From Candidatus Cloacimonadales bacterium (lineage in GTDB: Bacteria > Cloacimonadota > Cloacimonadia > Cloacimonadales > JAFGVF01): DNA of 64,000 nt. The notes under the pieces were generated by a model. The model had not been told where the DNA came from and did no database searches. It saw nothing but the letters and a program-made list of their open reading frames with translations. Positions within the stretch are counted from its first letter, which is position 1. Each line of letters starts with the position of its first letter. This document shows, one piece after another, positions 20,752 to 43,917 of the stretch. The stretch is taken from contig CAXXJV010000001.1 of the NCBI GenBank assembly GCA_963663475.2, positions 864,001 to 928,000 on the forward strand, in the 5' to 3' direction. A program made the position numbers and the translations under genes.

Positions 20752-20898
20752 ATATTTATACCTCAAACAAACCCTATTTTTTTGGGGGATTTTGTGTCAA
20801 TAGAAAAAAGTGGAAAGGGGGATTAGGACATTAGAGAAAGTCTTCAACAATCAAAATCCACTGGAAAAGTAATAATATTCAACTAATGTTAACCTCGT

Positions 20899-21097
20899 TT
20901 ATCTCAAATGGTGCAGTAGAACTTTGATACTACTTCGCTAAAGCTACTTATCACAGGTGAAGAGTGCAGATTATTCTTGCAAAATAACCTACAGAATTTT
21001 GACGCATATAATATATATATTCGGAGAAACTATGTAAGTTATTTTTGCAGAAGAATATAGTACTATTCGCAAAGGTCTACTGCATTATTTGAGTTTA
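20899..21097 (-). mobile_element. Foldback MITE family A, long (~200 bp) form, inverted
   Basis: Reverse complement aligns to the family; carries the 30-bp CCTGTGATAAGTAGCTTTAGCGAAGTAGTA insert. Confidence 0.85.
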
Positions 21098-21306: not shown

Positions 21307-21420
21307 CTATAGGGATCTGAATAGGATTCTTATGATCAAGTTTATGTTTTGAAGAAAGATAAATGTATAAGATAAGGGCTAAGTTGATAAAGTAATTGCT
21401 AAAATATCAGTGATAGTGAT

Positions 21421-21621
21421 TTAACCTAAATAACGCATTAGATCTTTGCGAATAGCAGAATCTTCTTTTGCAAGAGTAAGCTACATAATTTTCATGAATA
21501 TATATATTATATGCATTCAAACTCTGTAACTTATTTTGCTAAAAGAATCTAGCACTCTTCACCTGTGATAAGTAGCTTTAGCGAAGTAGTATCGAAGTTC
21601 AAATGCACTATTCTGGTTTAA
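21421..21621 (+). mobile_element. Foldback MITE family A, long form
   Basis: TTAACCTAAATAACGCA...TGCACTATTCTGGTTTAA with the 30-bp insert. Confidence 0.85.
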
Positions 21622-22153: not shown

Positions 22154-22317
22154 CTGAATATTCTTTTGCAAAAGTAAGATCCATAATTCTTACGAATATA
22201 TAGGTTATATGCCTTCAAATTCTGTAACTTATTTTGTTAAGATAATATGCACTCTTCACCTGTGATACGTAGCTTTAGCGAAGTATTACTAAAATTCTAC
22301 TGCACCATTCGGGATAA
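22151..22317 (+). mobile_element. MITE family A, long form, 5'-truncated
   Basis: Internal body and right end TGCACCATTCGGGATAA present; left TIR absent. Confidence 0.8.
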
Positions 22318-22492
22318 TTTGGGAAAAGTGTAGTTTTTTTTCAACACTTTGCCAAGAGAGAGCTGAAAATTTCTCACCAAGGAAGATTATATGAAGAGTG
22401 ACGGGAGTTGCTCACGGAGTAGCGACTTCCGACACTCTTCACCCGAAGTCCCTTGCCTACGGCTGAGGAAGTCTGGTCTCCAACAAAAAGTA

Positions 22493-22970
22493 GGCTCAAG
22501 TTCAAGTCTGGTGGTAAATAAGAGACTTTCATTATAGCATATTGCTTGAATAATAGAAAGTTACAAGTAAGAATATACTGTTAAGAGTATGTTTTGTTTG
22601 ATGATAAGTACTAAATCCTGAAAGGATAAGTCTTAAATCCTCAAAGGGGATAAATAGTTTAGCCTAGGGTAAATTCCTGAAGGGAATGCAACCCTGGGTA
22701 CTGGTGATGAAAAACAAAGCCTAACCCTGAAAGGGTTAAATAACATCATATATACCATAGACTTATACAATAATATATTATTTATCATTTTATTAAACCC
22801 TTACAGGGTAACATCTTTGGGCTAGCCATCATTACCCAGGGTTGCGATACTTTCAGCATCTTACCCTGGGCTAAATTATTTTATCCCTTTCAGGGATTTT
22901 TGATGAATTAATATAGTAATGAAATATTCTAATTTTCCTATATTATTCCCACCAGACTTGAACTTGAGCC
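22493..22970. mobile_element. Non-autonomous 478-bp element with perfect 22-bp TIRs (family B)
   Basis: GGCTCAAGTTCAAGTCTGGTGG (22493-22514) and CCACCAGACTTGAACTTGAGCC (22949-22970); no ORF. Confidence 0.8.
22635..22900. repeat. REPIN-like inverted doublet (~110-bp arms) nested in the family B element
   Basis: Arms 22635-22743 and 22790-22900 are imperfect reverse complements, each with CCCTGAAAGGG and CCCAGGGT...ACCCTGGG hairpins. Confidence 0.75.
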
Positions 22971-23046
22971 AAAAAAATTAAAAAACTATTATAAAATCTT
23001 GACTAATTTAAATTAGCTAGTAAAATTAAATTGTTATTTGTAAGTA

Positions 23047-23416: not shown

Positions 23417-26400
23417 ATGCATAGCAAAGAATGGAATAGTGATATTTTGGTTAAATTAAAGGCAATAGCACTTCATTTTGATCCAGAACATTTAACAACT
23501 TATACCCTAGGTTTAGCAGTTTTAGCTTTAGAAGAAAGCCGAGAAATTTTAATTAACAAGTTAAAGATAGACCCCTTTTGTTTGAGACAAGTAGATTTAC
23601 CTGATTATGAGATTCCTGAGAATCTAGCAGATATTCCTTGGCCGACTATCCTATGCGAATCAAATAGTAACTGGTTTGATAGTGATGATGATAATGATAA
23701 GAATTCAAGTGAAGATGATGAAATTGATAAAGAAATTAAGAGAATGCTGGCAGAGTTACAAGAAGATGATGATGATAATTTTGATGATTCTGATGAATTA
23801 ACTTATGATGATGAACATGATCAATGGGTCTTTAATAGAGATGATGATAATGATGAAGAAATAGACCCAGAGGATGATGTTTTTAAGTTCATGGAGTTTG
23901 CAGATGAAGAAGCTGAAGAAAATGAAGAAGCTGAAGAAGATGAAGCAGAGGAAACAGATGAAACTGAGAAAGATAGCACAAAAGCTTATGGAATAAAAAG
24001 TGAAATTGATGATGAAGAGTTTAAAATAGATAATCCAAAAGACTTAGTGGATAAAATAGTTGATACCCTTCACGGTAATTTCTGGTATAAGAGAGAATAT
24101 TATGCCAATTCGAATGAAGTGATAATGACCTTAAATACAATTTTTGAGGAAGTTGAAACAGAATTTTCCTATTACAAAGAACAACTAGGACTTTTAAAGG
24201 AGTTAATCATTAACCAAATTTTAGATGGTCAATTTTCAGATAATCAGATAAATCCTTTGCCTATTGTGATTTGCTCTTTTGAAGCCAATAATATTAGCCC
24301 CATACTCAACTATATAGCCAAAAAGATGCATTATAAATTTAACTTCATAGAAGAAACCCTTTCGCTTTCAGACCATTTTAACTATAATACAATGTTTCCT
24401 TTCACAATGGATGTCATTCGTTTTAGCGATAAAAAGACTGATTTTACTGATGAGATTCATAAACTTTTAGATTATTATGAAACAGGTATTTTTCAGCATA
24501 GTTTTGAAGCTGATTCAAGTGAGGATTTCTTTAATTTTCTGTCAGATAGTTCAAAGAAAGAAACTGACGATAAGGAGTTTAATAAAGACTTCTTCTTCAG
24601 AAATCATTTAATTATATTCTTATTACAGATAGATTCGGATATTGATGTTGATTTTCACATGAGTAATGAAAAGATAAAAACTACTATTACCTCTTTTTAT
24701 AAAGATAGTTATCTCGCTGACCAGCATGAAGGCATTTATAATACTTATAATAAATATAAAGCCCTTTTTAAAGCTATTAAATCTGAGAAGTTAATCCTGT
24801 TTGATTATGGCGAAACTAGACTGATTCTAGCAAAAATCAAGGACTTTGTAGATTCATTGCTAGCTAGATACCCCGAAATCAAGCTAATCTTGGCTAGGGA
24901 TATTGAAAAAATCATTTTTTTCAATGTTCTCAAAGTAGGAGGATTTGATCTAAATTCTCTCAAGCTTGCTATATCGCACTCCATTTATAAGCTAAATCAA
25001 TTATTACTTTTCCATAATTCTCAAGATAAGATAAACCGAGTACGTTTTGATGTTAAAAATACTAAGATTAAAGATTTTATGCAGATGCTTCATAATAATA
25101 AAAGTAGCTATGAAATTATCCAGTATATAGAAGATAATTTCTTAAAACATAGTCAAAAGTTAACTTACAGTATTGATTATGACCAGACACAGAAGGAATT
25201 CATCTTTACAGATTTGAACTTAGAAACAATAATCAGAGAAGGTTCTAATCTTACCCAAAGACCTGAGGTGAGGTTTAAAGATGTCATAGGTTGTGAAGAA
25301 GTAAAAAAACGCTTCGCTAAAATAATTGACTATTACAAGGACAAATCATTTTTCCTAGAAAAGGGAATTAAAATGAGTAATAGAATTCTTCTCATAGGAC
25401 CTCCAGGCACTGGTAAGACTATGGTTGCTAAGGCCTTTGCAGGAGAAATAGGACTACCTTTTTATGCTATTTCAGCTGCTGAAGTTACTTCTCAACAATG
25501 GGCAGGCTGGGGGGCTAGTCTCCTAAGAAAGATCTTTTACAAAGCAAAAAAGAACAAGCCCTGTGTAGTCTTCCTTGATGAAATTGATGCCTTTGGTAAT
25601 CGAGGTCAGTTTAATGGTGATGATGGGGGAGTTGGTTATGATGCAAAGAGTATTATGAATACCTTACTTGTTCTGCTAGATGGAGTTGAAGATAATAATG
25701 ATGTAATTGTGATTGGGGCTACTAATAGACCAGAAGATTTAGATGATGCTTTGATTAGATCAAAAAGATTTGGATTAAAGTTTGAGATAAAAGCCTTAAC
25801 TTCTGCTCAGAGAATTCAACTTATAAAACTTCATCTAAAAGAAAAAAATGTCCAGGGAGATTATGAAAAGTTAGTTACTCACATTAAAGACAGAACTTAT
25901 GGAGAATTCTCTGCAGCTAAAATTGTTGAATTAATTGAAGAAACCCAAATCTATGCCCTAATTGATAAGAAAACTAAAGTTACTGCTAACCACTTTGACT
26001 ACATCATTGATAAGTTTATTTTAGGTGAAAAAATTTCTAATCTAAATCCTGATTATAAGAAAAATGTAGCTATTCATGAAGCAGGTCATGCAGTAATTCA
26101 CCAAATGCTTTTCCCAGAAAATTCTATCCAGAGTCTGTCTCTTGGCTTAAGAAAATCCTCTGTTGGGATAACTCTCTACAAGAAAGAGAATAGCGATAAT
26201 GGTTATGAAGAACTTAAAAATACCGAAATAATTAATCATATTGTCATAGCCCTAGCTGGAATGCAAGCTGAAAAGATTATGTTCGGACATTGGGATTTAG
26301 GCTCTAGTGATGACTTTGTTGTTGCCACCCATATGAGCCTTCAACTTGCCTGTAATTTAGACTTAGGAAAAGGAATCTCTCCTGTAATTGATTATAGTTT

Positions 26401-26653
26401 AATGGTCTTAGATTTGGGAGGTAAAGAAATATCCCCAGAAACTAAGGAAATATTGCATGAGTTAGTGGAGATTTGCTCCCAGAAAGCTGGTGAATTGCTT
26501 AGGGGAAATTGGGAATATGTGCTGAAATTGGCTGGAGAATTAGAGGAAAAAGAAGACTTGAATTGGGAGGATATTAGACCGCTTCTAGAGGGATTGAAGC
26601 CTTATAGAGGAGCTTTGGTTGATAAGCTTATGGGGGTTGAGGTGAAGGTGTAG
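23417..26653 (+). CDS. Soluble FtsH-like AAA+ ATPase / M41 metalloprotease with long acidic N-terminal region
   Basis: VRFKDVIG, GPPGTGKT, VFLDEIDA, ATNRPEDLDDALIRSKRF, HEAGH, LAG..AE; no TM helices. Confidence 0.9.
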   Translation: MHSKEWNSDILVKLKAIALHFDPEHLTTYTLGLAVLALEESREILINKLKIDPFCLRQVDLPDYEIPENLADIPWPTILCESNSNWFDSDDDNDKNSSEDDEIDKEIKRMLAELQEDDDDNFDDSDELTYDDEHDQWVFNRDDDNDEEIDPEDDVFKFMEFADEEAEENEEAEEDEAEETDETEKDSTKAYGIKSEIDDEEFKIDNPKDLVDKIVDTLHGNFWYKREYYANSNEVIMTLNTIFEEVETEFSYYKEQLGLLKELIINQILDGQFSDNQINPLPIVICSFEANNISPILNYIAKKMHYKFNFIEETLSLSDHFNYNTMFPFTMDVIRFSDKKTDFTDEIHKLLDYYETGIFQHSFEADSSEDFFNFLSDSSKKETDDKEFNKDFFFRNHLIIFLLQIDSDIDVDFHMSNEKIKTTITSFYKDSYLADQHEGIYNTYNKYKALFKAIKSEKLILFDYGETRLILAKIKDFVDSLLARYPEIKLILARDIEKIIFFNVLKVGGFDLNSLKLAISHSIYKLNQLLLFHNSQDKINRVRFDVKNTKIKDFMQMLHNNKSSYEIIQYIEDNFLKHSQKLTYSIDYDQTQKEFIFTDLNLETIIREGSNLTQRPEVRFKDVIGCEEVKKRFAKIIDYYKDKSFFLEKGIKMSNRILLIGPPGTGKTMVAKAFAGEIGLPFYAISAAEVTSQQWAGWGASLLRKIFYKAKKNKPCVVFLDEIDAFGNRGQFNGDDGGVGYDAKSIMNTLLVLLDGVEDNNDVIVIGATNRPEDLDDALIRSKRFGLKFEIKALTSAQRIQLIKLHLKEKNVQGDYEKLVTHIKDRTYGEFSAAKIVELIEETQIYALIDKKTKVTANHFDYIIDKFILGEKISNLNPDYKKNVAIHEAGHAVIHQMLFPENSIQSLSLGLRKSSVGITLYKKENSDNGYEELKNTEIINHIVIALAGMQAEKIMFGHWDLGSSDDFVVATHMSLQLACNLDLGKGISPVIDYSLMVLDLGGKEISPETKEILHELVEICSQKAGELLRGNWEYVLKLAGELEEKEDLNWEDIRPLLEGLKPYRGALVDKLMGVEVKV

Positions 26654-26691
26654 TAATGTGGAAGGAGAATTTCTTAATCAAAGAGGTATTA

Positions 26692-26744
26692 TTGCAGAAG
26701 AAAATTCTGCTAATCACAAAAGTCTACTGCGTTATTTGGGTAAA
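26692..26744 (-). mobile_element. MITE family A, left-end fragment
   Basis: Reverse complement reads TTTACCCAAATAACGCAGTAGACTTTTGTGATTAGCAGAATTTTCTTCTGCAA. Confidence 0.7.
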
Positions 26745-26836
26745 ATCGTGACTGGGTGATGGTAAATCCTATTGTTATCTCCAAAGGGAAGTACTTCTAA
26801 TTACGGAAGATATGAGGAATTATGATTATTATACTG

Positions 26837-26861
26837 GAGGGATAGATGACTTCTATCCCTC
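26837..26861. terminator. Hairpin between convergent genes
   Basis: GAGGGATAGA-TGACT-TCTATCCCTC. Confidence 0.5.
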
Positions 26862-27053
26862 TGTTATTAATTCAATATCATCATCTGATAATCTACTTCT
26901 TAATAATGAATCTATACAAATGATAGAAAAAGTTTTAAAGTAGGTGATTGTATAGTTGTCAGGAACCCTTTATGCTATATTAGTAGGAATGAGAAGGATT
27001 ATTTTATGGGCGATTTTTGTGTTGAGGTGTGAGATAAAAAGGGGGTAATTAGT

Positions 27054-27491
27054 TCAATAATCAGTATGATTACTAGGTATATCAGTATGACTTCTTCTAT
27101 TATGAGTATCTGTATGTTTAGATTTCTGTCCAAAATCCTTGTGTGAAGGTGACTTCACTCCACCATAATTGAAATCAGAATGATTAATCCAATCTCCTTG
27201 ATCAATGTGAGATGGTTTCTGGTGTTCTATTCCAAAATCAAAATCTGTATGATTGCCAATTGTAGTAGTATCAGTATGTGGCATTTTAATACCATAGTCT
27301 TTATGTTTCTGCCCATAATCTAAATGTTGTAACTCATAATTATTATGACTTCTATTATCATGCATATCGGATAAAATAATCTCTCGCTTTTGGATTGCTT
27401 CGTAACATTTTATCAAACGTTTGTTGGTAAAGGAAATTTTGTCATCAGATAGACAAAAATTAGCAATATACTTAAGTTTCTCTTTCATCAT
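27054..27491 (-). CDS. His-x-Asp repeat protein, candidate rSAM-modified RiPP precursor
   Basis: ~43-aa leader-like N-terminus, then 10 HxD and 2 HxN motifs; 4-nt overlap with the rSAM gene. Confidence 0.75.
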   Translation of the reverse strand: MMKEKLKYIANFCLSDDKISFTNKRLIKCYEAIQKREIILSDMHDNRSHNNYELQHLDYGQKHKDYGIKMPHTDTTTIGNHTDFDFGIEHQKPSHIDQGDWINHSDFNYGGVKSPSHKDFGQKSKHTDTHNRRSHTDIPSNHTDY

Positions 27492-28567
27492 AGTTTTACC
27501 TCTCTATAAATAACATTCGTGATTTTTTCAAAGATCATTTTATAAGACTCACAAAAAATATCTTTACTATCTAAATCATTATGACCTATTAGTGCGTTAT
27601 AAGGGCATCCAGAGTAACATATATTAAAATAGTCACATTGAAGGCATTTAGATTTCAAAAAACTTCTGTTCTTTAAAGCTTGTTTTGTTCTATGTTTAAA
27701 AATATCTTTAAGAGTTGAGGTGTTGATATTCCCTAGTTTATACTCTTCTAGATAATCGAACCTATTACAAGGATAAATATCTCCATTACTACTTATTGAA
27801 ATAAAATAATCTTGGCATGAAACTGAATGATTACAACTACAGGGCTCAAATCTTTTGTAGCTGAGAATATTTTCGATAAACTGTTCAAAAGTAATAATAG
27901 TATTCTCAATATTTTTATCATTATACCAAAGATCAAATAAATCTATCATAAACTGACCAAAATCTAAAGGAGATATTGCAAAATTTTTATTATTAGATAT
28001 CAGAGGATTAAATTTCCAGTTAATATTATTTTCCTTAAAAAAATCATAAATAGCACTAACATTCTGTGAACTTTTTTTAGATATTACTGCAATTGTACCA
28101 AATCTAATTTTTTCTTTTTGTAGCAATTTAATATTTGAAAAGACAGACGAAAAAGAACCCTTACCATTTTTATCTATTCTATAAAAATCATGAATTTCTT
28201 GTGGGCCATCTATACTTAGCCCTAAATTAATCTCATTATCCTTTATTAGGTCAACCCACTCCTTATTAATAAGAGTAGCATTAGTCTGTATGCAATTATG
28301 GTATTTATCATTAGGTAATATTCGTTTTTGATAATTAATTATTTTTTGGAAGTTATCAATACCTGTCAATAATGGTTCTGAACCATGCCATATGAAACTT
28401 ATTGTATTGCCTTCTTTAATTAATTTGTTGGCTTCTGTAAAGATTTTATTACATACAGAAAGACTAATTAACTCCTTTGATGAAATTGAACTATTGTCAT
28501 AGCAATACAAACAGTTCAAATTGCATTTGTTAATTGGCTTTATTATTATTTCATAGTGATTATTCAT
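27488..28567 (-). CDS. Radical SAM/SPASM domain maturase
   Basis: CNLNCLYC, WHGSEPLL, QTNAT, SIDG, GDIYPC, CLQC..FNICYSGCP...FC. Confidence 0.93.
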   Translation of the reverse strand: MNNHYEIIIKPINKCNLNCLYCYDNSSISSKELISLSVCNKIFTEANKLIKEGNTISFIWHGSEPLLTGIDNFQKIINYQKRILPNDKYHNCIQTNATLINKEWVDLIKDNEINLGLSIDGPQEIHDFYRIDKNGKGSFSSVFSNIKLLQKEKIRFGTIAVISKKSSQNVSAIYDFFKENNINWKFNPLISNNKNFAISPLDFGQFMIDLFDLWYNDKNIENTIITFEQFIENILSYKRFEPCSCNHSVSCQDYFISISSNGDIYPCNRFDYLEEYKLGNINTSTLKDIFKHRTKQALKNRSFLKSKCLQCDYFNICYSGCPYNALIGHNDLDSKDIFCESYKMIFEKITNVIYREVKL

Positions 28568-28719
28568 AATTAGTCCTTTATTAATTGAACTGATTTCATT
28601 GCCTATCTTTAGTTTTTACTATAAATTATGGGTATGAGAATAGCATTAAGTTGATTAAGGATAAATCATTAGTTAGATAATTCTAAGCTGAACAATTCAA
28701 TCTTATTAGTAATCAATTG

Positions 28720-29340
28720 CTTCACCTTGTTGTTGGCCATCAACGTAATTTACTAATTATCTGTAGTCCTATCTTCATTGTACAATATTTCTTCACCTTG
28801 TTGTTGGCCATCAACGTAATAGGTTTTAAGCATTATATTTCCATAAAGAGAATATGTTATTGTCTCACCTTGTCTTCTGCCATCAACGTAATTGGCTTTA
28901 GTCCGTATATTCCCATTTTTATAATACGATATTTCTTCACCTTGTTTTTTGCCATCAACGTAATTGGCTTTAGTCCGTATATTCCCATTTTTATAATACG
29001 ATATTTCTTCACCTTGTTGTTGGTCATCTACGAAATTGGCTTTAACTTTTATACTTCCATCTTCATGATAAAAAATTACTTCACCTTGTTGTTGGTCATC
29101 TACGAAATTGGCTTTAACTTTTATACTTCCATCTTCATTATAGAAGGATGCTTCACCTTGTTGTTGGCCATCTACGAAATGGGCTTTACTTTCTATAGTC
29201 CCATCTATACGAAACCATATTACTTCACCTTGTAGTTTACCATCTACGTAATTGGCTTTACCCTCTATATCTCCTCCTCCATTATACCATATATTTTCAC
29301 CTTGTTTTTTACCATCTACGTAATTGGCTTTGGTCCATTT
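28720..29340 (-). repeat. 72-bp coding tandem repeat array
   Basis: TCACCTTG recurs every 72 bp; some adjacent units are nearly identical. Confidence 0.9.
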
Positions 29341-29865
29341 ACCTCTACACTCAGAAAACGTAATTTCTTCGCCATGCTTAACTCCATTTTTGAAATCATT
29401 TTCCACGATATAACACTCCGAATAACAATCTGATTGATCCCAGAGAGCAATAGTACCATTGAGAGGTAAATGAGAAATTTTGTAGTAAATCCTTGTAGTA
29501 TCATCTTCAACATCTAGTATATCTTCAAATTCTGAATATTGTTCACTATAAATGTCCTTTATATCTAAAGGTTCTACATCCTTGAATTCTGAATTTTGTT
29601 TGCTATACAATAATCCCCAAGTAAAATCTTCTTGCCATAAACTACTGGCTGTTATTATACCATTTTTAACATCTAACTCATACATTAGAATCTCATTATC
29701 ATCATAGTGCTGTATTGTCCCAGTAAAGGGTTTATTCTCGTCATTTTTAATAACAAAAATATCTTCTTTTTCATAATAAGCTATCTCATCTGAGCTTATT
29801 GTCTTTTCACAACTGGTAAGTAAAAATACAAGCAAAATTAATAAAATTATCTTAAAGATTTTCAT
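28753..29865 (-). CDS. MORN-variant (YwqK-like) repeat lipoprotein; last repeat frameshifted
   Basis: Lipobox LTSC; tandem 24-aa QGE..Y..xG.I..KANyVDG repeats. Confidence 0.85.
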   Translation of the reverse strand: MKIFKIILLILLVFLLTSCEKTISSDEIAYYEKEDIFVIKNDENKPFTGTIQHYDDNEILMYELDVKNGIITASSLWQEDFTWGLLYSKQNSEFKDVEPLDIKDIYSEQYSEFEDILDVEDDTTRIYYKISHLPLNGTIALWDQSDCYSECYIVENDFKNGVKHGEEITFSECRGKWTKANYVDGKKQGENIWYNGGGDIEGKANYVDGKLQGEVIWFRIDGTIESKAHFVDGQQQGEASFYNEDGSIKVKANFVDDQQQGEVIFYHEDGSIKVKANFVDDQQQGEEISYYKNGNIRTKANYVDGKKQGEEISYYKNGNIRTKANYVDGRRQGETITYSLYGNIMLKTYYVDGQQQGEEILYNEDRTTDN

Positions 29866-29985
29866 AACATCTCCTTATTACGCATTATCAAAAACATCCA
29901 CATCATTGTTATTAAGTACAAGTAGCTTAGTAGAATTTTATAGAAACAATTGCACTTTTCTTAAAATTCTTCAGAAACATTTAGG

Positions 29986-30155
29986 TTAAACCCAAATAAT
30001 GCAGTAGACCTTTGTGAACAGCACTATATTCTTCTGCAAAAGTAACTTCCATAATTTCTCCGAATATATAAAATATATGCGTCAAAATTCTGTAAGCTAT
30101 TTTGCTAGAATAATCTGCACTCTTCACTAAAGCTCTACTACACTATCTGGGTTAA
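29986..30155 (+). mobile_element. MITE family A, short form
   Basis: TTAAACCCAAATAATGCAGTAGACCTTTG...CTACACTATCTGGGTTAA. Confidence 0.88.
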
Positions 30156-30168
30156 AAATATTTGTATA

Positions 30169-30549
30169 TTATTTATCTCGGTAAGCCAGTTTTCCTGATG
30201 AGCTTCTTTCAAGCCTATGTATTTGATGATTTTGCTTGATAGAAATAGAAATTAATTTATAAAAGGAGTTACTATAAGTAATATTAATTGTAGCTCCAAC
30301 TTGCAGTTGTTTACCTATATCGAAATTATGTATAGTTTTATAGGCAGTTAAAGTTTCATCAATTTCTTCAAGGCTAAATCCTTGATTAAGCATGATTGAT
30401 TGAAAAAACATTCCAGATTTTATTACTATACTTGTATCTATGATAGTTTGAGCTTTTTCTTGGCTTATTACTTCTTGCTTTTCTTTACACCCCAAAAAGA
30501 ACAAGAATATAGATAGGAATAGAACAAATAGCTTCATATTTTTTTTCAT
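30169..30549 (-). CDS. Lipoprotein resembling the N-terminal (LysM/OapA-like) part of M23 DD-endopeptidases; possibly truncated
   Basis: Lipobox FLGC; IKSGMFFQSIM..QGFS.EEI...KQLQVGATINI pattern; no HxxxD/HxH catalytic domain. Confidence 0.5.
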   Translation of the reverse strand: MKKNMKLFVLFLSIFLFFLGCKEKQEVISQEKAQTIIDTSIVIKSGMFFQSIMLNQGFSLEEIDETLTAYKTIHNFDIGKQLQVGATINITYSNSFYKLISISIKQNHQIHRLERSSSGKLAYRDK

Positions 30550-31376
30550 TTTATTAACACCACAGGTTTATGTTTTTCTCCATCACAAGTATATCCTAAT
30601 TTTAGTAGATAATAGATAGTATTTGCTGGCAAATCTCTGAATTTAGCATTCAATATAGGACTTACCTGTTCAGAAAGAATTTCATTCATTGGTGATAAAG
30701 TAGGGTAAGTAGTCATTTCTATTTCATTAAATTTACTAACAAGTATTTCAGGATAAGAAACTTGAATATTTATGTTTTCAAAAACAATATCCATAAAAGT
30801 AGATATATAGACTAAGTCTTCATAATTTATGTTTGATTTTCTATAAAATGTCCCGATATTTATTGTATCAAGTTGGTAGTAATTAATCAAGTTAGTAATC
30901 ATAGTCTTGAATGTAACTAGTTTATCAATGATAGTATTTTTTTTGTTAGCATCTTCTTTTAATCGACTTAAGTCATTTTCAAGAGATAAAAAACTATTTT
31001 GACTCGATAAGCATAAGTTTTGAAGTTGATTTAAATCTTGTGATTGATCGAAAGATAAAAGCTTAGGTTTAACAAATTTTAAAAGAGACTTCACTGTAAA
31101 TTGAATACTAAACTCATTATTTTTTTTACGAAGTTTATCATTTTCTTCATTTATTTTCCTAAGAGATAGATTGTTTTCTTTGATAATTTTGTTAAGTTTC
31201 TTGCACTTTCTAATTTCAAAAATGTGGAATATAAGGATATTCAAAATTACTATTATTACAAGTGAGATTTCAATGATAAGTCCATAATTGAAATTGACAG
31301 TCATGAATTGTGAATATATTAGTAATAATAATACAAGAAGTAAGAGTGAGTTGATCGTCATCTCAAGTGTTTTCAT
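30546..31376 (-). CDS. 2-TM coiled-coil protein with GrpE-like C-terminus
   Basis: TMs, coiled coil, then YPEILVSKFN...NTIYYLLKLGYTCDGEKHKPVVLIK. Confidence 0.6.
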   Translation of the reverse strand: MKTLEMTINSLLLLVLLLLIYSQFMTVNFNYGLIIEISLVIIVILNILIFHIFEIRKCKKLNKIIKENNLSLRKINEENDKLRKKNNEFSIQFTVKSLLKFVKPKLLSFDQSQDLNQLQNLCLSSQNSFLSLENDLSRLKEDANKKNTIIDKLVTFKTMITNLINYYQLDTINIGTFYRKSNINYEDLVYISTFMDIVFENINIQVSYPEILVSKFNEIEMTTYPTLSPMNEILSEQVSPILNAKFRDLPANTIYYLLKLGYTCDGEKHKPVVLIK

Positions 31377-31384
31377 TTGTTCTC

Positions 31385-34069
31385 CTAAAAGTATGGCCAG
31401 AGTTTTTTACAGGTGTGTTCGTTCCAGATTTTCCCCGATAAAGGGCTAATAGAATAATCAGTATTTGCGACAGAGAAGGTATAATATAAATTATTATATT
31501 GCAATGAATTATTTATAATCTCTTGTCCCCGAATAGGATCGTTATTTATTGTTAAATCACCATCAATTGCTTTAAGACACAAATCGTAATTAGTATCATT
31601 ATTCAATTTCAGGTTATCTAAAGAAATATTTAAGATGTCATTTTTACATAAATCATTAGGGGTACATATTTTTATTGGATCGACAAAACCATCAGCTCTT
31701 GAAAAAATCAAAGAGAAGAGAGGTTTGTTTGGAGTAAGATAGTCCATAGCTCTATTAAAATATTCATAAGCTCCTTGGGCAGTGACTATTTTAGACTCAT
31801 CAGAGTAAATATCAAAATTTAGAGATTTTTTTAGACATTTTTTTAGACATTTTTTTAGAATTGTTTTTGGAGACCAAAATTTACCAAGTACCTCTTCTTT
31901 AATATTTTTAATCATTTGCTTTCTAAGCTCTGGTAACTTTATGCTACGTCCAGAAAGAATGATTCGGTCAATTTTATATGATTGAATACCTTCTAGGAAG
32001 GAGTGAATCAGTTTTTTATTGAAATTAGTTTTAAAATCAACAAAAGTAGGACTAGTAATTAACTCATTTCTTAAATTTTTCAGCTGTTCTTGATTATAGT
32101 TATCTTCACCTAATCGCAATCTTCCTAACTGTTGATAAAGATTATCTTCTAGAATATCATCATAACGATTTTCCTTAAGTAGTTTTATGAAATATTTAAA
32201 TATGAATTTTTCATAGCTATTCAATTCATGGTGACTTATATTTTTTTTCCTTAGATAATTATCTGCTAGTAAGAAATCTATGTAATCACCAGCTCCTAAG
32301 ACAGACGTACTTTTAACTATTGAATTTCTAGCTTCATTATCCTGAGGAGAATGGTTAGATTGGAAAAAGGTAAGGTCTATTGTTCCAGCCCCAATATCAA
32401 TAGCTAAAATATTCTCCACTCTTCTTCGTAAATTAAACTCAATTCTCTTGAAATAATTTTCATAGCCCCTACCGTCTCTCAATTTGATGAAGTCATTTCT
32501 TTTCTTTTTATCATAGTTCGCTATAACAGCCTCTGCTTCTGTTATTATATTTACATCAAGACAATTTTGAGACTGATAAAATGCATCCTTTAAAGTCTTC
32601 TTATTTGCTAAAGTAAAAGTTTTGGGAACAGTTATGATATATTTTTTCAAAATCGTATCATCTAACCCTATTCTTCTAATCAGTGCATTTGTATAAATTT
32701 CAATAATCCTTTCAATCTCAATTCCTTGGTATTGGTTATGACCAAGGATTAACTTAATTGCTGGGACTAGTATTTTTTTATTATCTTGATTTAAGGCATT
32801 AAGGTCAGACCATCTTTCAATAAAAGAGAACATTCTAATCTCAATTTTTTTAATAAAAATATTTATGATATTTTCAAGAGTTGAGTAACTTTCTTCAAAG
32901 ATATTCATTAAATGATTTACATCTTGATTATTGTTATTCTGGATTTGCCTGCATATGTCTGACCACAATTCATTATTGCCTAACAGAGTTTGAAATTCAC
33001 TGATAAAGGGAGATATTTTTTGCTGGGTTTCTTCATTAATCCAAGAATTTGGTCCAAAAATACTAGCATGTTGTATTTTTAGATTAGCTATTGTGGGGTG
33101 GGCAATACTAGCAATAAAGTCAATTTTCTCTTTTAATTGACCCAATAGATATTGTCTAATCTCAGAAATAGGTATACTGGTATCGAGAACACCTATTGCA
33201 CTAAGAATATGAGGATCTTTTTCTATAACCCCAGCATTGCTATCTGGATTATCATTGAATACCTTTGTCTTAATAAGTCCATTTTGATATTTATAATTAA
33301 CCACTATTCCACTCGTTCCCATATCTATAGCAATATTAACAAAATTATCAACTCGAATAATAATAATTTCATAAGTATGTTCAATTTCTCCATTATTTAG
33401 TATGTCTATGCTGATTCTGTTTTCACCAATATTCAAGTTTTGAAGATTGATGTTGGGCTTATTATTGAATTCTTGATCGTCTAATCTTAGGTTTAATTTA
33501 TAATTATTATTTACATCATTATCTCTCATATTTGATATACTTATATGGATTCCTTTGTGGTGACAATAAACAATATATCTTTTTCTTGAACTATAAAAAT
33601 TATGCTGGCCAATACGTAATTGGAAGCTATCTGTGTCTGGTAAGTTTCTAATGTTAGGGGAGTATTCTATTTCTCTTAAGGTTTTATTATTAAAACTCAA
33701 ATATATTTTTACGTCAATTTTCGGAATCAACCCATCACCAATACCTTTCCAATTTGGATCTTGATGATTTAGCTTTATTTGTAAGCAATTATTATCACTT
33801 TTTAAAATTTCAGCAGTTAATTGTGTTACAAGTGTTTCTTGAAAAATATCATTGTGGAAGATATAAGCTTCTATTTTAATGATGTCTTGCAGGATATAGT
33901 CACTAATGACATATTTATGTAACCACCATAGATTGGATATAACAAGGCTACCAAGATAATTGTTATCAGCTAAATCAGATTCATACTTAACACTAATATC
34001 TTTAATTTGTAGTACTTTTTTAACAATTTCATTTTTTTTATCATCAGGGATAATACTTGAAATAAACAT
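31385..34069 (-). CDS. Divergent Hsp70/actin-fold (ASKHA) ATPase with N-terminal cadherin-like beta-sandwich
   Basis: IAIDMGTSG, ITVP, ITEAEAV, LAIDIGAGTIDL, GAGDYID, ILSGRSIKLP, TAQGA. Confidence 0.85.
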   Translation of the reverse strand: MFISSIIPDDKKNEIVKKVLQIKDISVKYESDLADNNYLGSLVISNLWWLHKYVISDYILQDIIKIEAYIFHNDIFQETLVTQLTAEILKSDNNCLQIKLNHQDPNWKGIGDGLIPKIDVKIYLSFNNKTLREIEYSPNIRNLPDTDSFQLRIGQHNFYSSRKRYIVYCHHKGIHISISNMRDNDVNNNYKLNLRLDDQEFNNKPNINLQNLNIGENRISIDILNNGEIEHTYEIIIIRVDNFVNIAIDMGTSGIVVNYKYQNGLIKTKVFNDNPDSNAGVIEKDPHILSAIGVLDTSIPISEIRQYLLGQLKEKIDFIASIAHPTIANLKIQHASIFGPNSWINEETQQKISPFISEFQTLLGNNELWSDICRQIQNNNNQDVNHLMNIFEESYSTLENIINIFIKKIEIRMFSFIERWSDLNALNQDNKKILVPAIKLILGHNQYQGIEIERIIEIYTNALIRRIGLDDTILKKYIITVPKTFTLANKKTLKDAFYQSQNCLDVNIITEAEAVIANYDKKKRNDFIKLRDGRGYENYFKRIEFNLRRRVENILAIDIGAGTIDLTFFQSNHSPQDNEARNSIVKSTSVLGAGDYIDFLLADNYLRKKNISHHELNSYEKFIFKYFIKLLKENRYDDILEDNLYQQLGRLRLGEDNYNQEQLKNLRNELITSPTFVDFKTNFNKKLIHSFLEGIQSYKIDRIILSGRSIKLPELRKQMIKNIKEEVLGKFWSPKTILKKCLKKCLKKSLNFDIYSDESKIVTAQGAYEYFNRAMDYLTPNKPLFSLIFSRADGFVDPIKICTPNDLCKNDILNISLDNLKLNNDTNYDLCLKAIDGDLTINNDPIRGQEIINNSLQYNNLYYTFSVANTDYSISPLSGKIWNEHTCKKLWPYF

Positions 34070-34086
34070 TTCATTCCTCCTTAGAA

Positions 34087-37002
34087 TTATAAGTTGTTAT
34101 ATTCTTCTTCGATTCTAGTCAAAGAGTAGCTAGAGATAATTAAAATAGTAAATGATGGGATAACAAATAATATATTCGAGAATTTGGCATGGCTTAGTAA
34201 ACAAGCTGGAATACCGACTATCGGAGATGTCCCTGCTACATTACCTATAGTAATAAGGTAATGGGAAATAATTAGTCCAGTTATAGCTAAAATGATATTA
34301 TTATAAGTTTTTTTTATTAGTGCTATTTCAGGATATATACTGTTAATATTACCAGATTTTTTTATGCTATTGAAGAATAACCAGAAAATTATCGATGCTA
34401 ACCATACAATTCCCCACCTTTTATATATAAAAAAGAAAAAGGATAAGGAAAAGTCATCTTTAATCTGTGGGACATTATCCAGTAGTGAAATTGAAGATAT
34501 GTTGCTGTTCAAAAAATGAGAAGATAGGTAAAATTGTTCATTTAGTATTGTCCATGGGTATCGGCACATGAAAAATCTTTGATGAAGGTAGGTTCCATTT
34601 GCAAAGTTGAAATAAGTTATGTAGCAGATGAAAAATAGCATTAATAGAGCAAAAGAAGAAAGATGTCTACTCTTTTCTTGGAGGAAAACTATTATAAATG
34701 ATATACTGAAAATAACCATATAGGATTGGTCATCCAAGCAAAAGGCAAAAGATATCGCTAGAATAAAACAGAGAATCCAACCCCAATACCTTGATAATGA
34801 ACTATTTTTACTATAAATATAAGTTGCCATAATAATAAATATTAGTTTTATTAATTCAAAGATAGGAAGATGTCTTCCAACCATAAGGATTCCTAACTCA
34901 TTTCCTCGAATTATCTGAAAAAAGAACAAAAGTAAAGAGTAGAAAAATATTTGAGGGAAAATATTGTATTTATTCTTATTAGCTTCAGTATTAAGGGTAC
35001 TATTTAAAAGGCCAAAAAAACCTTTTTTAAATGGGTCATCAGCTATATAATAAAATTTTTTAAATAAATAGCCGATAATAGAGACTGTAGCCAATGAGAA
35101 GATAATTCCGACTTTTAGTGACCTAATAAGTTCATTTTGCAAATAGTGAAGTCTGGGGGAATAAAAACTCATGATTGTCAAGTTTAACAAACCTTGGTAA
35201 CATAGTAATATAAAGATCAAGATAAAAGTTATTATTTGATTATCTATCCTTAAATATTGCATCAAGAAAATAACAAGAAGAGCAATAATGGAAAATATGC
35301 CTGTGATTTTGAGAATCTTATGGCGTATATTAACAGGTTTTGAGTAATTAATTTTAGTTTTCGACGAATGCTGACTATTTGTAAGTTCATTAGAAAATGT
35401 AAAATCATCTTGGTAGTAGTACTTTCTATTCTCATTTTTTGTATTAGTTATCACTAATAAACTATCTTCTTTTGAAATATCAAAATCAGAGTAGCCGATT
35501 CTAAATGATGGTTGATCATTAAATATTCTTCTTTCTTGAAGTTCATATAAAGAGTTAAAGTTATTTTCTCCCATAGATTTAACTTGAATATTGTGTTTTG
35601 CTCTAGGGCTGTAGTTAATTATTGAAAGGGTAATATCAGTTCTGAAAGAACTTAAACACAATAATATAATAGCTATTAGGAAAGTGACTCTAAAAAAGAG
35701 CATTTTTTTCTGCCAAAGTCTTACCAAAAGTCTTACAATGATTACTTTGATTGCATTCACAATCTTCTTCCATGCTCTATTATTATTAGGTTCTTCTATA
35801 TCATTAACTAAGGGAATATTTTCAATCTTACTCTTATCAGAAGAAAAAATTAAAATCAAATGAATGGTAGCTATATGAATAAAAACAAAAAGAATTATAA
35901 TGTCTAAGGAACTAACCAATGAAATATTACTAATAAGTGGTGTTTGGGTGATTATTAATGACATCCAGTTTAATATTAAATACGTGATAAAAAGGTAAAT
36001 AAGTGATAACACAAAAGTATTAATCAGGGATAATACTTTTGATAAGAGCTTATTTTTTACTGATGACGATCCTATCCTAAATGGCAATGTAAGTATATAA
36101 AATAATCGTGAAGCAAAGAATATAAAAACTCTTAAATTTAATCCTAAGTCGATGTTGATAGTTTCTCCAGTGAGGGTATAATTATGTAAAATATATAAAT
36201 ACATGGTCATGAATAAAAATAATACAATTAGAATTAATATAAGAAATGTTAAAGAGTTATAACTAAAAAACATCGATAGAATAATTAGAGTAATACAGAA
36301 GCAAAAAAACACGATAAACTTAGGAATTTTATTCCATAGTTCTCGATTAAGTTCAACCACCTTACTAGAATTTCTTATAATATATGAGGAAAAATCATTT
36401 AAGTATTTTTTATAAGGTGAGGAAAAGATTCCAATCGCTAATATTAGTAGTATGAGGGAAGGTATAAATCTATTTAAGTATTCAGGTAGATTAAATAAAT
36501 TTGATGTAACCCTAAAAATAACTTTCTGTGGAGAATTAAATTCTTTTGGAGGGAAAAAAGTAAAAGGTAAAGCGCTCCAAAGAAAATGTATTTCTTTATT
36601 ATTGCCATAAGAAATAATCTTAAAAAACTTATAGTCATTAAAGTCAATTTGATTATTATTTAGATTGATTTTATCTCCATCTTTCAACTTGTAATTTGAA
36701 AGGTAACTATTTCTTAGAACAACTCTATTAGTTGCTGATAAATTCTTGAATGAAAAATTTTCATAATCAGAAGAAGTAATAGCTAAATGATGATCACTAA
36801 TTTTGGGTAGATTTAAAACTATATCATTATCATCTGAAGAGCCAAGAGTTAATTCAAAGTCATCACTATTAGCAGGTAAAGGATAGATGTAACTAGTTTC
36901 AGATACTTTTATTATTTTTTCATTTTCCAATTTATGATAGGGAACGATAAAACTTATCATAAACAAAATAATAAAAATTGTGATAGTCAATATATTTCTC
37001 AT
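34087..37002 (-). CDS. FHA-domain + SEDS (FtsW/RodA) family peptidoglycan glycosyltransferase-like protein
   Basis: N-terminal LTLGSSDDNDIVL..ISDHH..KNLSATN..LKDGDKI; many TMs; FELIK, VPQIKDDF, GTSPIVGIPACLLSH. Confidence 0.8.
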   Translation of the reverse strand: MRNILTITIFIILFMISFIVPYHKLENEKIIKVSETSYIYPLPANSDDFELTLGSSDDNDIVLNLPKISDHHLAITSSDYENFSFKNLSATNRVVLRNSYLSNYKLKDGDKINLNNNQIDFNDYKFFKIISYGNNKEIHFLWSALPFTFFPPKEFNSPQKVIFRVTSNLFNLPEYLNRFIPSLILLILAIGIFSSPYKKYLNDFSSYIIRNSSKVVELNRELWNKIPKFIVFFCFCITLIILSMFFSYNSLTFLILILIVLFLFMTMYLYILHNYTLTGETINIDLGLNLRVFIFFASRLFYILTLPFRIGSSSVKNKLLSKVLSLINTFVLSLIYLFITYLILNWMSLIITQTPLISNISLVSSLDIIILFVFIHIATIHLILIFSSDKSKIENIPLVNDIEEPNNNRAWKKIVNAIKVIIVRLLVRLWQKKMLFFRVTFLIAIILLCLSSFRTDITLSIINYSPRAKHNIQVKSMGENNFNSLYELQERRIFNDQPSFRIGYSDFDISKEDSLLVITNTKNENRKYYYQDDFTFSNELTNSQHSSKTKINYSKPVNIRHKILKITGIFSIIALLVIFLMQYLRIDNQIITFILIFILLCYQGLLNLTIMSFYSPRLHYLQNELIRSLKVGIIFSLATVSIIGYLFKKFYYIADDPFKKGFFGLLNSTLNTEANKNKYNIFPQIFFYSLLLFFFQIIRGNELGILMVGRHLPIFELIKLIFIIMATYIYSKNSSLSRYWGWILCFILAISFAFCLDDQSYMVIFSISFIIVFLQEKSRHLSSFALLMLFFICYITYFNFANGTYLHQRFFMCRYPWTILNEQFYLSSHFLNSNISSISLLDNVPQIKDDFSLSFFFFIYKRWGIVWLASIIFWLFFNSIKKSGNINSIYPEIALIKKTYNNIILAITGLIISHYLITIGNVAGTSPIVGIPACLLSHAKFSNILFVIPSFTILIISSYSLTRIEEEYNNL

Positions 37003-38009
37003 TGTTTTTCAACCTTGAGTGTGTATAAGCCAAGATCATAAGTCTCGCCATATTCTATTTCTTTACCATTAATTATCCATTTATTAGTTTCTAGCCTAAT
37101 TTTTTTGGGAAGCTCTGAAGATTCAGATGGGAGATACACTTTCTTGTAGGTGGCATGATTAGTGAAAAAATACTTAGGTATTTCTATTTTTAAATCTATC
37201 TCGCAAGCAAAATCAGATTCAATATCTTCTCTCAGGTTAATACAGCTTGCTCGACTGGCATTACATGAATAACAAATTTCTCCACTGTCATCTTTATAAA
37301 TTCCGATAACTGCTATGTCTTTCCCATTTCCATCTACAAATTCAAAGTTTTTACTGTTAAGATATAGTTCCAGTTTAGTAGTATTCCCTAATCTCTCAAT
37401 CACTTTCTTAGCAATTTCAGATAGTGATGCAAATTTAATTTTTTTTATTAATGTGAATTTACTTAGAAGGTCATTAATATTTATTACTCTTTCCTTTTCA
37501 ACGAGTTCAATATTTTTTTTCTCATCTTCAAAGCTAATTACTTGAGGATTAATATCTCTAATTTGCACAAAATCATTACTAATAACAGATTTACTGTTTG
37601 AATTCATAATAGTAGCAAATGGATCACTACTTATTAAGCAAAATTCATTATCTTTAATATTAAGAGAAATCGCTTTTTTATATGTGAGATTAGATGTACC
37701 ATTTAAATAATACTGATTAGATAAGAATTTATCATGAATCATTAGATAAGCTTTATTGAAGTCAATATGGGAGTATATGGTTTTTAAGTCAATTTTTATC
37801 CCAAGATAAGCTTTTGGCTCTTCGACATCTCCTATAAAGTATCTAAAAACTGAAGGAAGTATCAATGTTAGCTTATTTTTTTCATTACTAATTACTGATT
37901 CCATTTCCTTATTATCTTCATTTTTTGCCTGTATTTTTTCCTTAATCAATTTAGTAATATAGTTATTTGAAATCTCATTTAAATCTAAATTAATTTGAAT
38001 TATTTTCAT
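36999..38009 (-). CDS. Hypothetical protein (possible degenerate FHA-like C-terminus)
   Basis: Coupled ORF; ends WIINGKEIEYGETYDLGLYTLKV. Confidence 0.65.
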   Translation of the reverse strand: MKIIQINLDLNEISNNYITKLIKEKIQAKNEDNKEMESVISNEKNKLTLILPSVFRYFIGDVEEPKAYLGIKIDLKTIYSHIDFNKAYLMIHDKFLSNQYYLNGTSNLTYKKAISLNIKDNEFCLISSDPFATIMNSNSKSVISNDFVQIRDINPQVISFEDEKKNIELVEKERVININDLLSKFTLIKKIKFASLSEIAKKVIERLGNTTKLELYLNSKNFEFVDGNGKDIAVIGIYKDDSGEICYSCNASRASCINLREDIESDFACEIDLKIEIPKYFFTNHATYKKVYLPSESSELPKKIRLETNKWIINGKEIEYGETYDLGLYTLKVEKQ

Positions 38010-38021
38010 GTTTATCCTTCC

Positions 38022-41000: not shown

Positions 41001-41615
41001 TTCTGCTAATTTTATAAGTATTGAATTTTCTTCAGTTAAAAGCGTAGGAAGTCTAACAGGGGTTAGATTGTTATTATTTCTCAGATAAAGATATTCGTCT
41101 GAATTAGGATATGTTGGATAAAGTACTAGTTGATTTTCTTGAAAGTCTAAACTTGCAATTAAATCTGGAATAAAAGTGTGGTCAGAAGATTTGTCAATAA
41201 CAATACTAGATTTTTTTTGATCAAAACCTATGTGAATAGTTCTACTACTAAGATCACTTCTATAAGCGTCGAAAATTGTCCTGTAGTAGAAATCTTTAGG
41301 CCTTGTATATAGTTCAAAATCAAGATCTTCAAAAGATATGATATCTCCATTTTTTAATTCATTAGTATTTGAAGTAATCAATTTATCGTTTATATAAGTA
41401 TTGTTAATATGAGATTTCGAAATCCAATTGTTATTTTCAAAATTAATTTCCAAAAGATCTGATCTACTTAAAAGTTTATCAGTCTCAACAATTATATAAT
41501 TATAATCGCTAGATACTTCTCCATTTTTCATTATACTGATGAGTTTTAATGAAAGGGATAGCATTGTAAGAGCTAAGAAAAGGACAATGGCTAAATTACG
41601 ATATAATATTTTCAT
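38022..41615 (-). CDS. Giant class B penicillin-binding protein with FHA-like N-terminal segment
   Basis: IYDRDNNILA, GLE, TTINSDWQ, GEILVSASYP, PGSTIK (SxxK), SYN (SxN), AKTGTS (KTG), SWFVG. Confidence 0.88.
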   Translation of the reverse strand: MKILYRNLAIVLFLALTMLSLSLKLISIMKNGEVSSDYNYIIVETDKLLSRSDLLEINFENNNWISKSHINNTYINDKLITSNTNELKNGDIISFEDLDFELYTRPKDFYYRTIFDAYRSDLSSRTIHIGFDQKKSSIVIDKSSDHTFIPDLIASLDFQENQLVLYPTYPNSDEYLYLRNNNNLTPVRLPTLLTEENSILIKLAEKEINLKIVQKLEKHKMYYKHPLNNHSQSDYLRDDLKVSISIQDKNKFSLDQLARSALLIFKNKSGLEIHKELSRDKKNIIVSQNKLLKPIDYRKNAIIPNSVSLAIFKKDYEKVMFTFKTKYLDNMLSRPLNNSLNYKRDIITDSLLCDEKLKKINKHHELALKPLLKELITETQSLIFQPGISATFAIYNHVNKTQRFVTTDNSWFVSHNNVRERAISYNRDTYFKRNFGSFIAFPLQINPPVNHQREFIFTPTDFNLEDGETVSYVKICATGDYLLRGFDKVISGDFSDRNKKIIINSAPRENIQISLITHNNSVKLFPNPYLKGYLEINNTRFPTNRNWRSSLNSYIAPSSFTDNMRNIGEKHYTSNRLQAVRVDSLDDNKIILPYENISPKSEQAFYYFRYDMPVSSPIFYDFNNDVLVYEIQDSTWRLLSNGDMVSANGVIAVQIKPYTSPLGPTNKLLLLSKGKLKDISVSRNVFDKIDIILPNIYDRDNNILAFSTPDSKRNYSSLRGLSNLLGFYDNKSKQTVGLESYFKELSNQYKNEKIEIETTINSDWQEYAHRLLESYVNDFSFKDGDLVNDKTEPWGAFLLTKRNGEILVSASYPSIDSTYFDNPRNERNLLVDLSYGSNVSGFNNRYLNHNFKSPATPGSTIKLINAMTLLHADSLLEEDDIRLQYVDILLHDDYTNNPNLNNGNDNWNNIKGKSFIFSPDKNITLNHKNFETENTVFTPTDNNLQKALEHSYNTYFSYAMLHLNLDFIDSYDDITYIRPKGYCLKEDEYLNYPFNYWRDKLFFNQRLTYTGNLLDSLGNSLLFHDTIAEDLIVNPSFLPNNELFSWDFVQAAVGDVTPSLTNFQQLMVLSLINEGYIKLPYLFKSIKIGEKIYNGQAISINNNIITSYMPRLKSYIGEKYSKDPPNLGRLYAKTGTSTLSNERELNNSWFVGIWEYEGETYYFSLVLNSVHQTSEIAVNLFKEFRDYVINNQNLSTY

Positions 41616-41629
41616 AATAATCCTAGTTG

Positions 41630-43426: not shown

Positions 43427-43469
43427 AATATACCTTTGATCTTATTTTGTAACTAGTGAATATCTGCTA

Positions 43470-43889: not shown

Positions 43890-43917
43890 AATATCTCCTA
43901 TAGTAATTAGTCATTTA

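Follow-up and report, generated by a model that had tools for sequence, protein, structure and literature searches.

A radical S-adenosylmethionine (SAM) enzyme gene in the genome of a Candidatus Cloacimonadales bacterium (assembly GCA_963663475.2, contig CAXXJV010000001.1) raises the question of what its product acts on: among curated protein families it scores best against anaerobic sulfatase-maturating enzymes (anSMEs), and its stop codon runs into a small open reading frame (ORF) filled with His-x-Asp repeats. The window analysed here is the 64,000-nucleotide stretch of this contig at positions 864,001 to 928,000, and all coordinates below refer to it. The two genes probably form a triceptide-type pathway for a peptide synthesized ribosomally and modified post-translationally (RiPP), in which His would be crosslinked to the C-beta of the Asp or Asn two residues further on, up to 12-13 times. 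We favour this reading because of the coupling of the two genes through ATGA, the excess of motifs, the Cys-free core, the complete set of cluster Cys residues, the lack of a sulfatase, the recurrence of similar enzyme-peptide pairs, the likeness to the dynobactin maturase DynA and a model of the enzyme-peptide complex.

The genes of the pair and the features within them lie on the reverse strand. The radical SAM/SPASM maturase gene (27488..28567) encodes 359 amino acids (aa), and the predicted precursor gene (27054..27491), a single copy in the genome, encodes 145 aa plus a stop codon. The maturase stop and the precursor start share 4 nt, ATGA, confirming the overlap reported in a preliminary description of this locus made from the sequence. 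Every countable detail given there for the peptide was also recovered: a leader of ~43 aa, followed by 10 HxD and 2 HxN motifs, 14 His in total and one WIN. The predicted leader (residues 1-43; 27363..27491) is delimited by the first Hx[DN] at residue 44, and the predicted core (residues 44-145; 27057..27362) carries HDN44, HNN49, HLD56, HKD63, HTD72, HTD81, HID95, HSD104, HKD117, HTD126, HTD135 and HTD142, with the WIN at residues 101-103. The peptide contains 16 Asp, and 12/14 of its His residues fall inside Hx[DN]. Among 100,000 shuffles of the whole peptide, none reached 10 HxD or 12 Hx[DN] (highest HxD count, 8), nor did any of 100,000 shuffles of the core alone reach the real motif count (highest, 7). 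No DNA-level tandem repeats were found in the precursor gene. With no Cys in the core, thioether chemistry is excluded.

The maturase encodes a Radical_SAM domain (residues 9-175), a SPASM domain (residues 253-312) and a sub-threshold Fer4_12 match, and Pfam detects no other domain. Its CX3CX2C radical SAM cluster motif (C15/C19/C22; 28502..28525) starts at residue 15 and thus leaves no room for an N-terminal extension or a RiPP recognition element (RRE), in line with the preliminary description, which had noted that an N-terminal RRE is missing. In an alignment with nine relatives (alignment A1), C19 and C22 are invariant and C15 is kept in 8/9 rows, those that span the position. The SPASM region (27551..27841) holds the auxiliary-cluster Cys residues C243/C245, C251, C267, C308, C311, C317, C321 and C339, which from C245 onwards are invariant across the nine relatives. 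Both features sought from triceptide systems are present, namely the radical SAM CX3CX2C motif with SPASM auxiliary Cys residues in the maturase and an adjacent precursor with aromatic-X-X motifs (12 Hx[DN] and 1 WIN in the overlapping ORF).

Judged by genome content and phylogeny, the window enzyme is not a sulfatase maturase, because the genome encodes no detectable sulfatase, trees split the enzyme from sulfatase-associated relatives with 99% support and forcing it among them is costly. The preliminary description had found no sulfatase gene nearby; the sulfatase family PF00884 has 0 matches near the locus or anywhere else in the genome (3.3 Mb, 99.24% complete), and the same search matched in 10/14 control genomes. 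In a FastTree phylogeny of 92 rows, a 99% branch parts all 14 sulfatase-labelled rows from the window enzyme, which groups with enzymes that have peptide neighbours; its neighbours in the tree are 34-40% identical to it and flank short peptides rich in aromatic-x-Asp/Glu/Asn. The labelled rows comprise 11 with a motif-flagged sulfatase neighbour (Pfam confirmed all 10 of these that were tested) and 3 protein-search matches, namely one named anSME at source, its close relative with WQGGEP and a Haemophilus anSME. IQ-TREE (36 rows, LG+C20) recovered the same split at 99%, and a tree constrained to place the window enzyme within the sulfatase clade is worse by 31.3 log-likelihood units (approximately unbiased test, p = 0.03), a placement to be read with the caveat that the window enzyme is a long branch of unusual composition. 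Clustering with anSMEs, which the preliminary description had regarded as an outcome that would speak against a peptide substrate, was therefore not seen: the enzyme falls outside the sulfatase-adjacent clade.

One sequence character put forward in that description fared less well. The enzyme does read WHGSEP where anSMEs usually have WQGGEP, but the signature fails to separate peptide-associated enzymes from anSMEs. The WHG signature was rejected as a discriminator since all sulfatase-adjacent relatives (11/11) read WHGGEP, a count that is partly by construction because a WHG pattern was used to retrieve these loci. Among 120 protein matches, the signature was WHGGEP in 75, WQGGEP in 24 and WHGSEP in 4. 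The genome-wide absence of sulfatases and the neighbouring peptide indicate that the name sulfatase maturase would be wrong here. The top score on the sulfatase-maturase model nevertheless creates a risk of misnaming, and one homologue is already so named.

Among the best 25 of 65 NCBIfam matches considered, no family reaches its cut-off: the maturase scores 279.5 bits against anSME (TIGR03942; cut-off 349.45), 264 against DynA (NF041298; 450), 152.9 against YhhB (445), 146.2 against GrrM/OscB (310), 136.3 against AmcB (425), 118.1 against XyeB (450), 91.1 against FxsB (370) and 81.9 against HxsB (370). Of the solved structures, anSMEcpe (4K36, 179 bits) is nearest, followed by the triceptide synthase ChlB (9GM3, 75.6 bits) and CteB (5WGG, 69.1 bits). 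The scores on the YhhB, GrrM/OscB, XyeB, FxsB and AmcB models and on ChlB do not assign the enzyme to a curated family of three-residue cyclophane-forming enzymes.

Comparison with the closest known systems refines this position. The enzyme resembles anSMEs in its top curated score, nearest solved structure, three-cluster architecture and lack of an RRE, but stays below the anSME cut-off, occurs in a genome without a sulfatase and lies on the opposite side of the 99% branch. Among curated models, DynA ranks first or second for the window enzyme and for 7/7 relatives scanned, in which it is the best match at 265-341 bits, below the cut-off of 450. Like the window enzyme, DynA has no N-terminal extension, with the window match spanning model positions 4-352 of 356, and it acts on W-x-N-type and His-containing motifs; the window enzyme's score nonetheless falls short of the DynA cut-off, and the decapeptide dynobactin has two rings, one closed by a His N-to-Tyr link, unlike the window core with its ~12 HxD repeats. 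The His-Xaa-Ser system (HxsA with HxsB/HxsC/HxsD) similarly sets a peptide of His-x-small-residue repeats beside radical SAM enzymes. It uses two paired radical SAM enzymes, whereas the window cassette holds a single radical SAM gene that scores far below the HxsB cut-off, and the only other, weak, radical SAM/SPASM match in the genome is ~480 kb away. The triceptide systems (XncB, OscB, MscB, YxdB, HaaB, YhhB, HtkB and MicB) share with the window one radical SAM/SPASM enzyme beside a precursor with repeated aromatic-X-X motifs, but differ from it in that the window core is long (~100 aa) with 12-13 candidate rings and the enzyme scores under every curated triceptide cut-off.

Close relatives of the maturase are rare. 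In a search of 5.8 billion clusters, the closest relative (P0002) shares 83% identity over 79% of the query, the next 40% and further ones at most 37%. P0002 itself is 318 aa long, diverges after residue ~283 and lacks the distal SPASM Cys residues, and looks like a broken copy in another organism. No orthologue was found in the 11 other genomes of the family, where the best matches are 26-29% identical, and relatives reach at most 38% identity in a pattern scan that took one genome from each of 185,579 species and at most 40% in a scan of JGI metagenomes. By these searches the maturase is nearly an orphan. Sequence comparison places it in a broader lineage that lacks a curated model, made up of RRE-less, DynA/anSME-like maturases with aromatic-x-Asp/Glu peptides as partners; His-rich versions of this lineage occur in DPANN archaea.

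The pairing with such peptides was surveyed at 161 loci (80 + 80 + the window) among small ORFs on the same strand within 900 bp of the enzyme, an ORF being counted as rich from 5 aromatic-x-[DEN] motifs upwards, provided that their density was 0.08 per residue or more. A rich ORF is adjacent to the enzyme in 41/161 loci, compared with 25/6,986 non-adjacent small ORFs. The preliminary description had proposed looking for HxD-repeat ORFs beside homologues of the enzyme, and these exist: a rich ORF with at least 3 Hx[DE] is adjacent in 12/161 loci (including the window, and with L091 repeating L006), compared with 1/6,986 non-adjacent small ORFs. The other eleven His-rich loci derive mostly from DPANN archaea and metagenomes. 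A sulfatase neighbour is present in 11 loci and a sulfatase together with a rich peptide in 0, although many surveyed contigs are short and absences are accordingly weak. Rich neighbours track identity to the window enzyme, occurring in 35/91 loci at 33% or more, 5/32 at 30-33% and 0/37 below 30%.

Three of the His-rich peptides are encoded directly downstream of the enzyme, with 10 Hx[DE] and a start codon overlapping the enzyme stop in L098, 8 Hx[DE] and a terminal HTDKY in L012 (Woesearchaeota), and 6 Hx[DE] in L087; further His-rich loci are L117, L114, L086, L126 and L006/L007. The middle residue of Hx[DE] is Thr in 29/63 and Ser in 11/63 motifs elsewhere and Thr in 5/10 in the window, and the acid is followed by Tyr in 15/63 motifs elsewhere and by Tyr or Phe in 6/10 in the window. 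The H-T-D(-Y) preference of the window core is thereby common to 15 other precursors. Besides the His-rich type, found mainly in DPANN archaea and metagenomes, the neighbouring peptides include a Bacteroidales type with the C-terminal end ...YNDCHGDYYDAE, a type with W-x-N repeats at delta-proteobacterial and Acidobacteria loci with two tandem radical SAM genes, and a W-x-D type.

Other arrangements were seen in the same survey. A WGNW/WRNW-repeat peptide followed by two tandem radical SAM/SPASM genes occurs at ten delta-proteobacterial and Acidobacteria loci (L018, L019, L021, L024, L026, L029, L034, L036, L038 and L039), where the second radical SAM enzyme is the relative of the window enzyme. 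Metagenomic loci L128, L145, L148, L156 and L163 and their neighbours encode upstream peptides with a long conserved leader (...FRDELEEVWVPKD.GELEGLLLTIQNEPGK.ILKHKIQQ...) and cores rich in W-x-D/W-P-D. A Bacteroidales locus (L048, 3992-6334) encodes a 780-aa fusion of radical SAM/SPASM and a second part, followed by a peptide with HTDY, HTDKY and Y-S-[DEN] repeats. At L052, L063, L143 and L144, the downstream peptide shares the I-D-S-P-A-L leader motif but has a different core ending in ...KHSDWGQQGQCGCVMGCLGG, which suggests that this branch has added another chemistry.

Enzyme and peptide were also modelled together, in one complex job with the enzyme as alignment A1 and the peptide as a single sequence. 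The models scored 0.83, 0.87 and 0.81, compared with 0.01 for the best control; the score mark is passed by 58/80 solved complexes and 2/110 mismatched pairs, rates that are approximate with a custom alignment. Contacts agree between model runs by at least 22%. Confident contacts are made by peptide residues 1-40, those at 21-30 (FTNKRLIKCY) among them, and fall on the enzyme at residues 214-240, 312-316 and 346-359; the model thus supports a leader-like role for the His-free N-terminus.

In the scheme that we propose, the two genes would constitute a minimal RiPP unit with the 145-aa product as its precursor. The N-terminal ~40 residues would serve as the leader and dock on the RRE-less radical SAM/SPASM enzyme at its bridging region and C-terminal helix. 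Reductive cleavage of SAM by the enzyme would produce a 5'-deoxyadenosyl radical that takes hydrogen from the C-beta of the Asp/Asn two residues on (i+2); the resulting carbon radical would add to the imidazole of the His at position i, and an auxiliary cluster would accept the electron. Each motif would yield a three-residue ring with a change of -2 Da, and rings at as many as 12 Hx[D/N] sites and at the single W-I-N would give a long triceptide-type poly-cyclophane peptide.

Both partners of the proposed bond have precedents in other pairings. His as the aromatic partner (HaaB HAA, YhhB HNR, HtkB HTK and MicB HAS) and Asp/Asn as the C-beta partner (YxdB and OscB) are described in parts of PMC11002830, PMC11499958 and PMC12912966. 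At atomic detail, excerpts of PMC11002830 and PMC11499958 give the links as Tyr C3 to Asp C-beta for YxdB, Trp C7 to Asn/Asp C-beta for OscB, His C2 to Ala or Arg C-beta for HaaB and YhhB, and His C2 to Lys C-beta for HtkB; for dynobactin, a passage of PMC11002830 gives His N-tau to Tyr C-beta. The window peptide might accordingly be joined at His C2, as by HaaB, YhhB and HtkB, or at a His nitrogen, as in dynobactin, a choice between a C-C and a C-N bond that is not readable from sequence.

Several observations weigh against the proposed pathway. Sequence relatives of the precursor were not found among 5.8 billion clusters by word index, among 1.84 billion representatives by phmmer or in the ESM Atlas. 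BLASTP of the window peptide against the L012 precursor gave E = 0.08, which is not significant. The leaders of the relatives carry a clear motif, I-x-N-P-x-L ... F-x-F-x-Y, and a hidden Markov model (HMM) of 18 such leaders ranks the window peptide 42nd among 632 window ORFs (E = 8.6), an earlier HMM of 9 leaders likewise failing to recover it, and neither HMM singled it out among 723 window ORFs; the sole leader resemblance seen by eye is local, N-K-R-L-I-K in the window and N-P-R-L-I-K in L012. Given these negative leader and BLASTP results, homology between the window precursor and those of the relatives is not claimed, and the link of the window peptide to the others rests on motif architecture and the enzyme tree. 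The enzyme itself is at most 40% identical to any relative with visible gene context, its sole close relative (P0002) being truncated. Moreover, the motif thresholds of the neighbour survey were set after the data had been seen, and the groups in the midpoint-rooted trees were named after the first tree had been seen. In the complex model, the partner pLDDT of 40-44 makes the peptide fold uncertain, and the score may derive partly from likeness to solved RiPP leader-enzyme complexes. No protease, exporter or immunity gene was found in the cassette among its ORFs or by Pfam. Finally, it is by analogy with characterised enzymes that we infer modification of the peptide at all, the atoms joined, the number of reacting sites and the role of the product.

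Three other explanations were weighed against the His-to-Asp/Asn crosslink. The pairing could be as proposed and the chemistry different, with a His N-to-C-beta link, a link through the Tyr or Phe after the acid, or a change of Asp or His that forms no crosslink (hydroxylation, epimerisation or an overoxidation shunt). In 7/7 relatives scanned, the curated model matched best is that of the dynobactin maturase, maker of the His N-tau to Tyr C-beta bond in the account excerpted from PMC11002830; H-x-[DE]-[YF] recurs in the window (Tyr or Phe in 6/10 motifs) and in the relatives; and overoxidation of Ser to aminomalonate is a shunt open to radical SAM cyclophane enzymes, according to a section of PMC12186529. 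We consider such a departure unlikely, however: the four characterised His-first triceptide enzymes covered in parts of PMC11499958 and PMC11002830 all join His C2 to C-beta, and the window enzyme's DynA score of 264 is far under 450.

The small ORF might instead encode an unmodified His/Asp-rich metal-binding or storage protein, the enzyme working on another substrate. With 14 His and 16 Asp among its 145 aa, the peptide would be a ligand for divalent metals, and it has neither a family nor a leader match. Yet enzyme and peptide are paired again in independent lineages, the start codon of one gene overlaps the stop of the other, the model docks the His-free N-terminus rather than the His-rich part and the genome offers no sulfatase substrate, which together make a separate metal-binding protein quite improbable. 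There is also a slim chance that the cassette yields no product in this organism, being an island that was acquired recently and is silent or decaying. It occupies an indel of 2.9 kb next to dispersed repeats and the remains of a phosphoesterase gene, it is absent from 11/11 other family genomes, and the enzyme has just one close homologue elsewhere, which is truncated; against decay, both ORFs are intact, all cluster Cys residues are kept and a further sample from the same study has the region 25500-28907 unchanged.

If the crosslinked-peptide reading holds, the product would contain the first three-residue ring joining His to Asp, partners each known only in other pairings, and with 12-13 rings in ~100 residues it would be among the most densely cyclised ribosomal peptides. 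No His-x-Asp triceptide was found in the literature searched; since this left out supplements and the 2022 JACS triceptide-landscape paper, an earlier listing is possible. The preliminary description had called the system a candidate new poly-cyclophane RiPP; the motif and the enzyme lineage appear to be new within the triceptides, and the claim does not extend to a new class. The triceptide class is known and large, with ~3,900 pathways predicted in the portion of PMC11499958 consulted. What appears new is the His-x-Asp pairing, the repeat number, an enzyme lineage without a curated model and the His-rich DPANN relatives.

A bolder extension, which we offer tentatively and regard as doubtful, is that HxD is the substrate of an undescribed His-to-Asp C-beta crosslink (C-C or C-N) that leaves the carboxylate free and is repeated about a dozen times. 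It would create a rigid imidazole-carboxylate ladder, a poly-cyclophane metal-binding scaffold, and the H-T-D(-Y) system common to this bacterium and DPANN archaea would be a cross-domain RiPP family. To our knowledge, few RiPPs are known from DPANN archaea.

The cassette has a discrete genomic setting. In congener G005, the positions matching 27048 and 29980 lie 6 bp apart, so the 2,931 bp between them (27049..29979), which hold the precursor, maturase and MORN genes, represent an indel. Among the matches listed for 6 congeners, none covers window positions 26812-29985 at the DNA level, and the cassette is absent from 11/11 other family genomes. The interval 25500-28907 shows 0 differences in the second sample of the same study. 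Sequencing run X5 gave one 151-base contig inside the enzyme gene and two short partial matches elsewhere, and is uninformative on a second host. At the left edge of the indel lies the remnant of a metallophosphoesterase gene (26816..27048, forward strand) in two 84-85% identical pieces with ~358 bp missing internally; the gene is intact in G005 (257 aa, Pfam Metallophos). At the right edge lies a copy of a ~170-bp repeat (29980..30157) with many copies in this genome and congeners, and a partial inverted copy of it (42 nt, 83%) occurs at 26700-26741. A gene neighbouring the cassette encodes a type IX secretion system (T9SS) sorting domain, a hint of a Bacteroidota-like host. A promoter/terminator scan gave 18 promoter-like sites, compared with 22.9 expected.

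The third gene of the indel (28753..29865), upstream of the maturase on the same strand (reverse), encodes a 370-aa MORN-repeat lipoprotein (Pfam MORN_2). Paralogues of this lipoprotein are common in the genus, and no MORN neighbour stood out among the ORFs around the enzyme in the loci of 18 relatives, where no search was aimed at one. The region 28692-29376 contains seven 72-nt (24-aa) tandem units with 64-77% identity to the reference copy, and congener G002 retains a 51%-identical, stop-interrupted fragment of the gene.

Dispersed elements are frequent in this part of the window. A ~490-bp element (22485-22977) has dozens of copies with 87-99% identity in this genome, and elements of ~170-200 bp resembling miniature inverted-repeat transposable elements (20898-21097, 21419-21621, 22158-22317 and 29980-30157) are present in many copies in every congener. 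A gene (23417-26653, forward strand) that is convergent with the precursor gene encodes a 1,078-aa FtsH-like protein (AAA and peptidase M41 domains) with a ~600-aa, partly very acidic N-terminal extension; G005 has a counterpart of 91% DNA identity, set in another locus context that lacks the cassette. On the other side of the indel, a long run of large ORFs on the reverse strand (30169-48018), mostly without a Pfam match, includes proteins of 894 aa with an actin/Hsp70-like ATPase motif recognized by eye, of 971 aa with an FHA domain and of 1,197 aa with a penicillin-binding protein (PBP) transpeptidase domain, as well as a 1,366-aa ORF.

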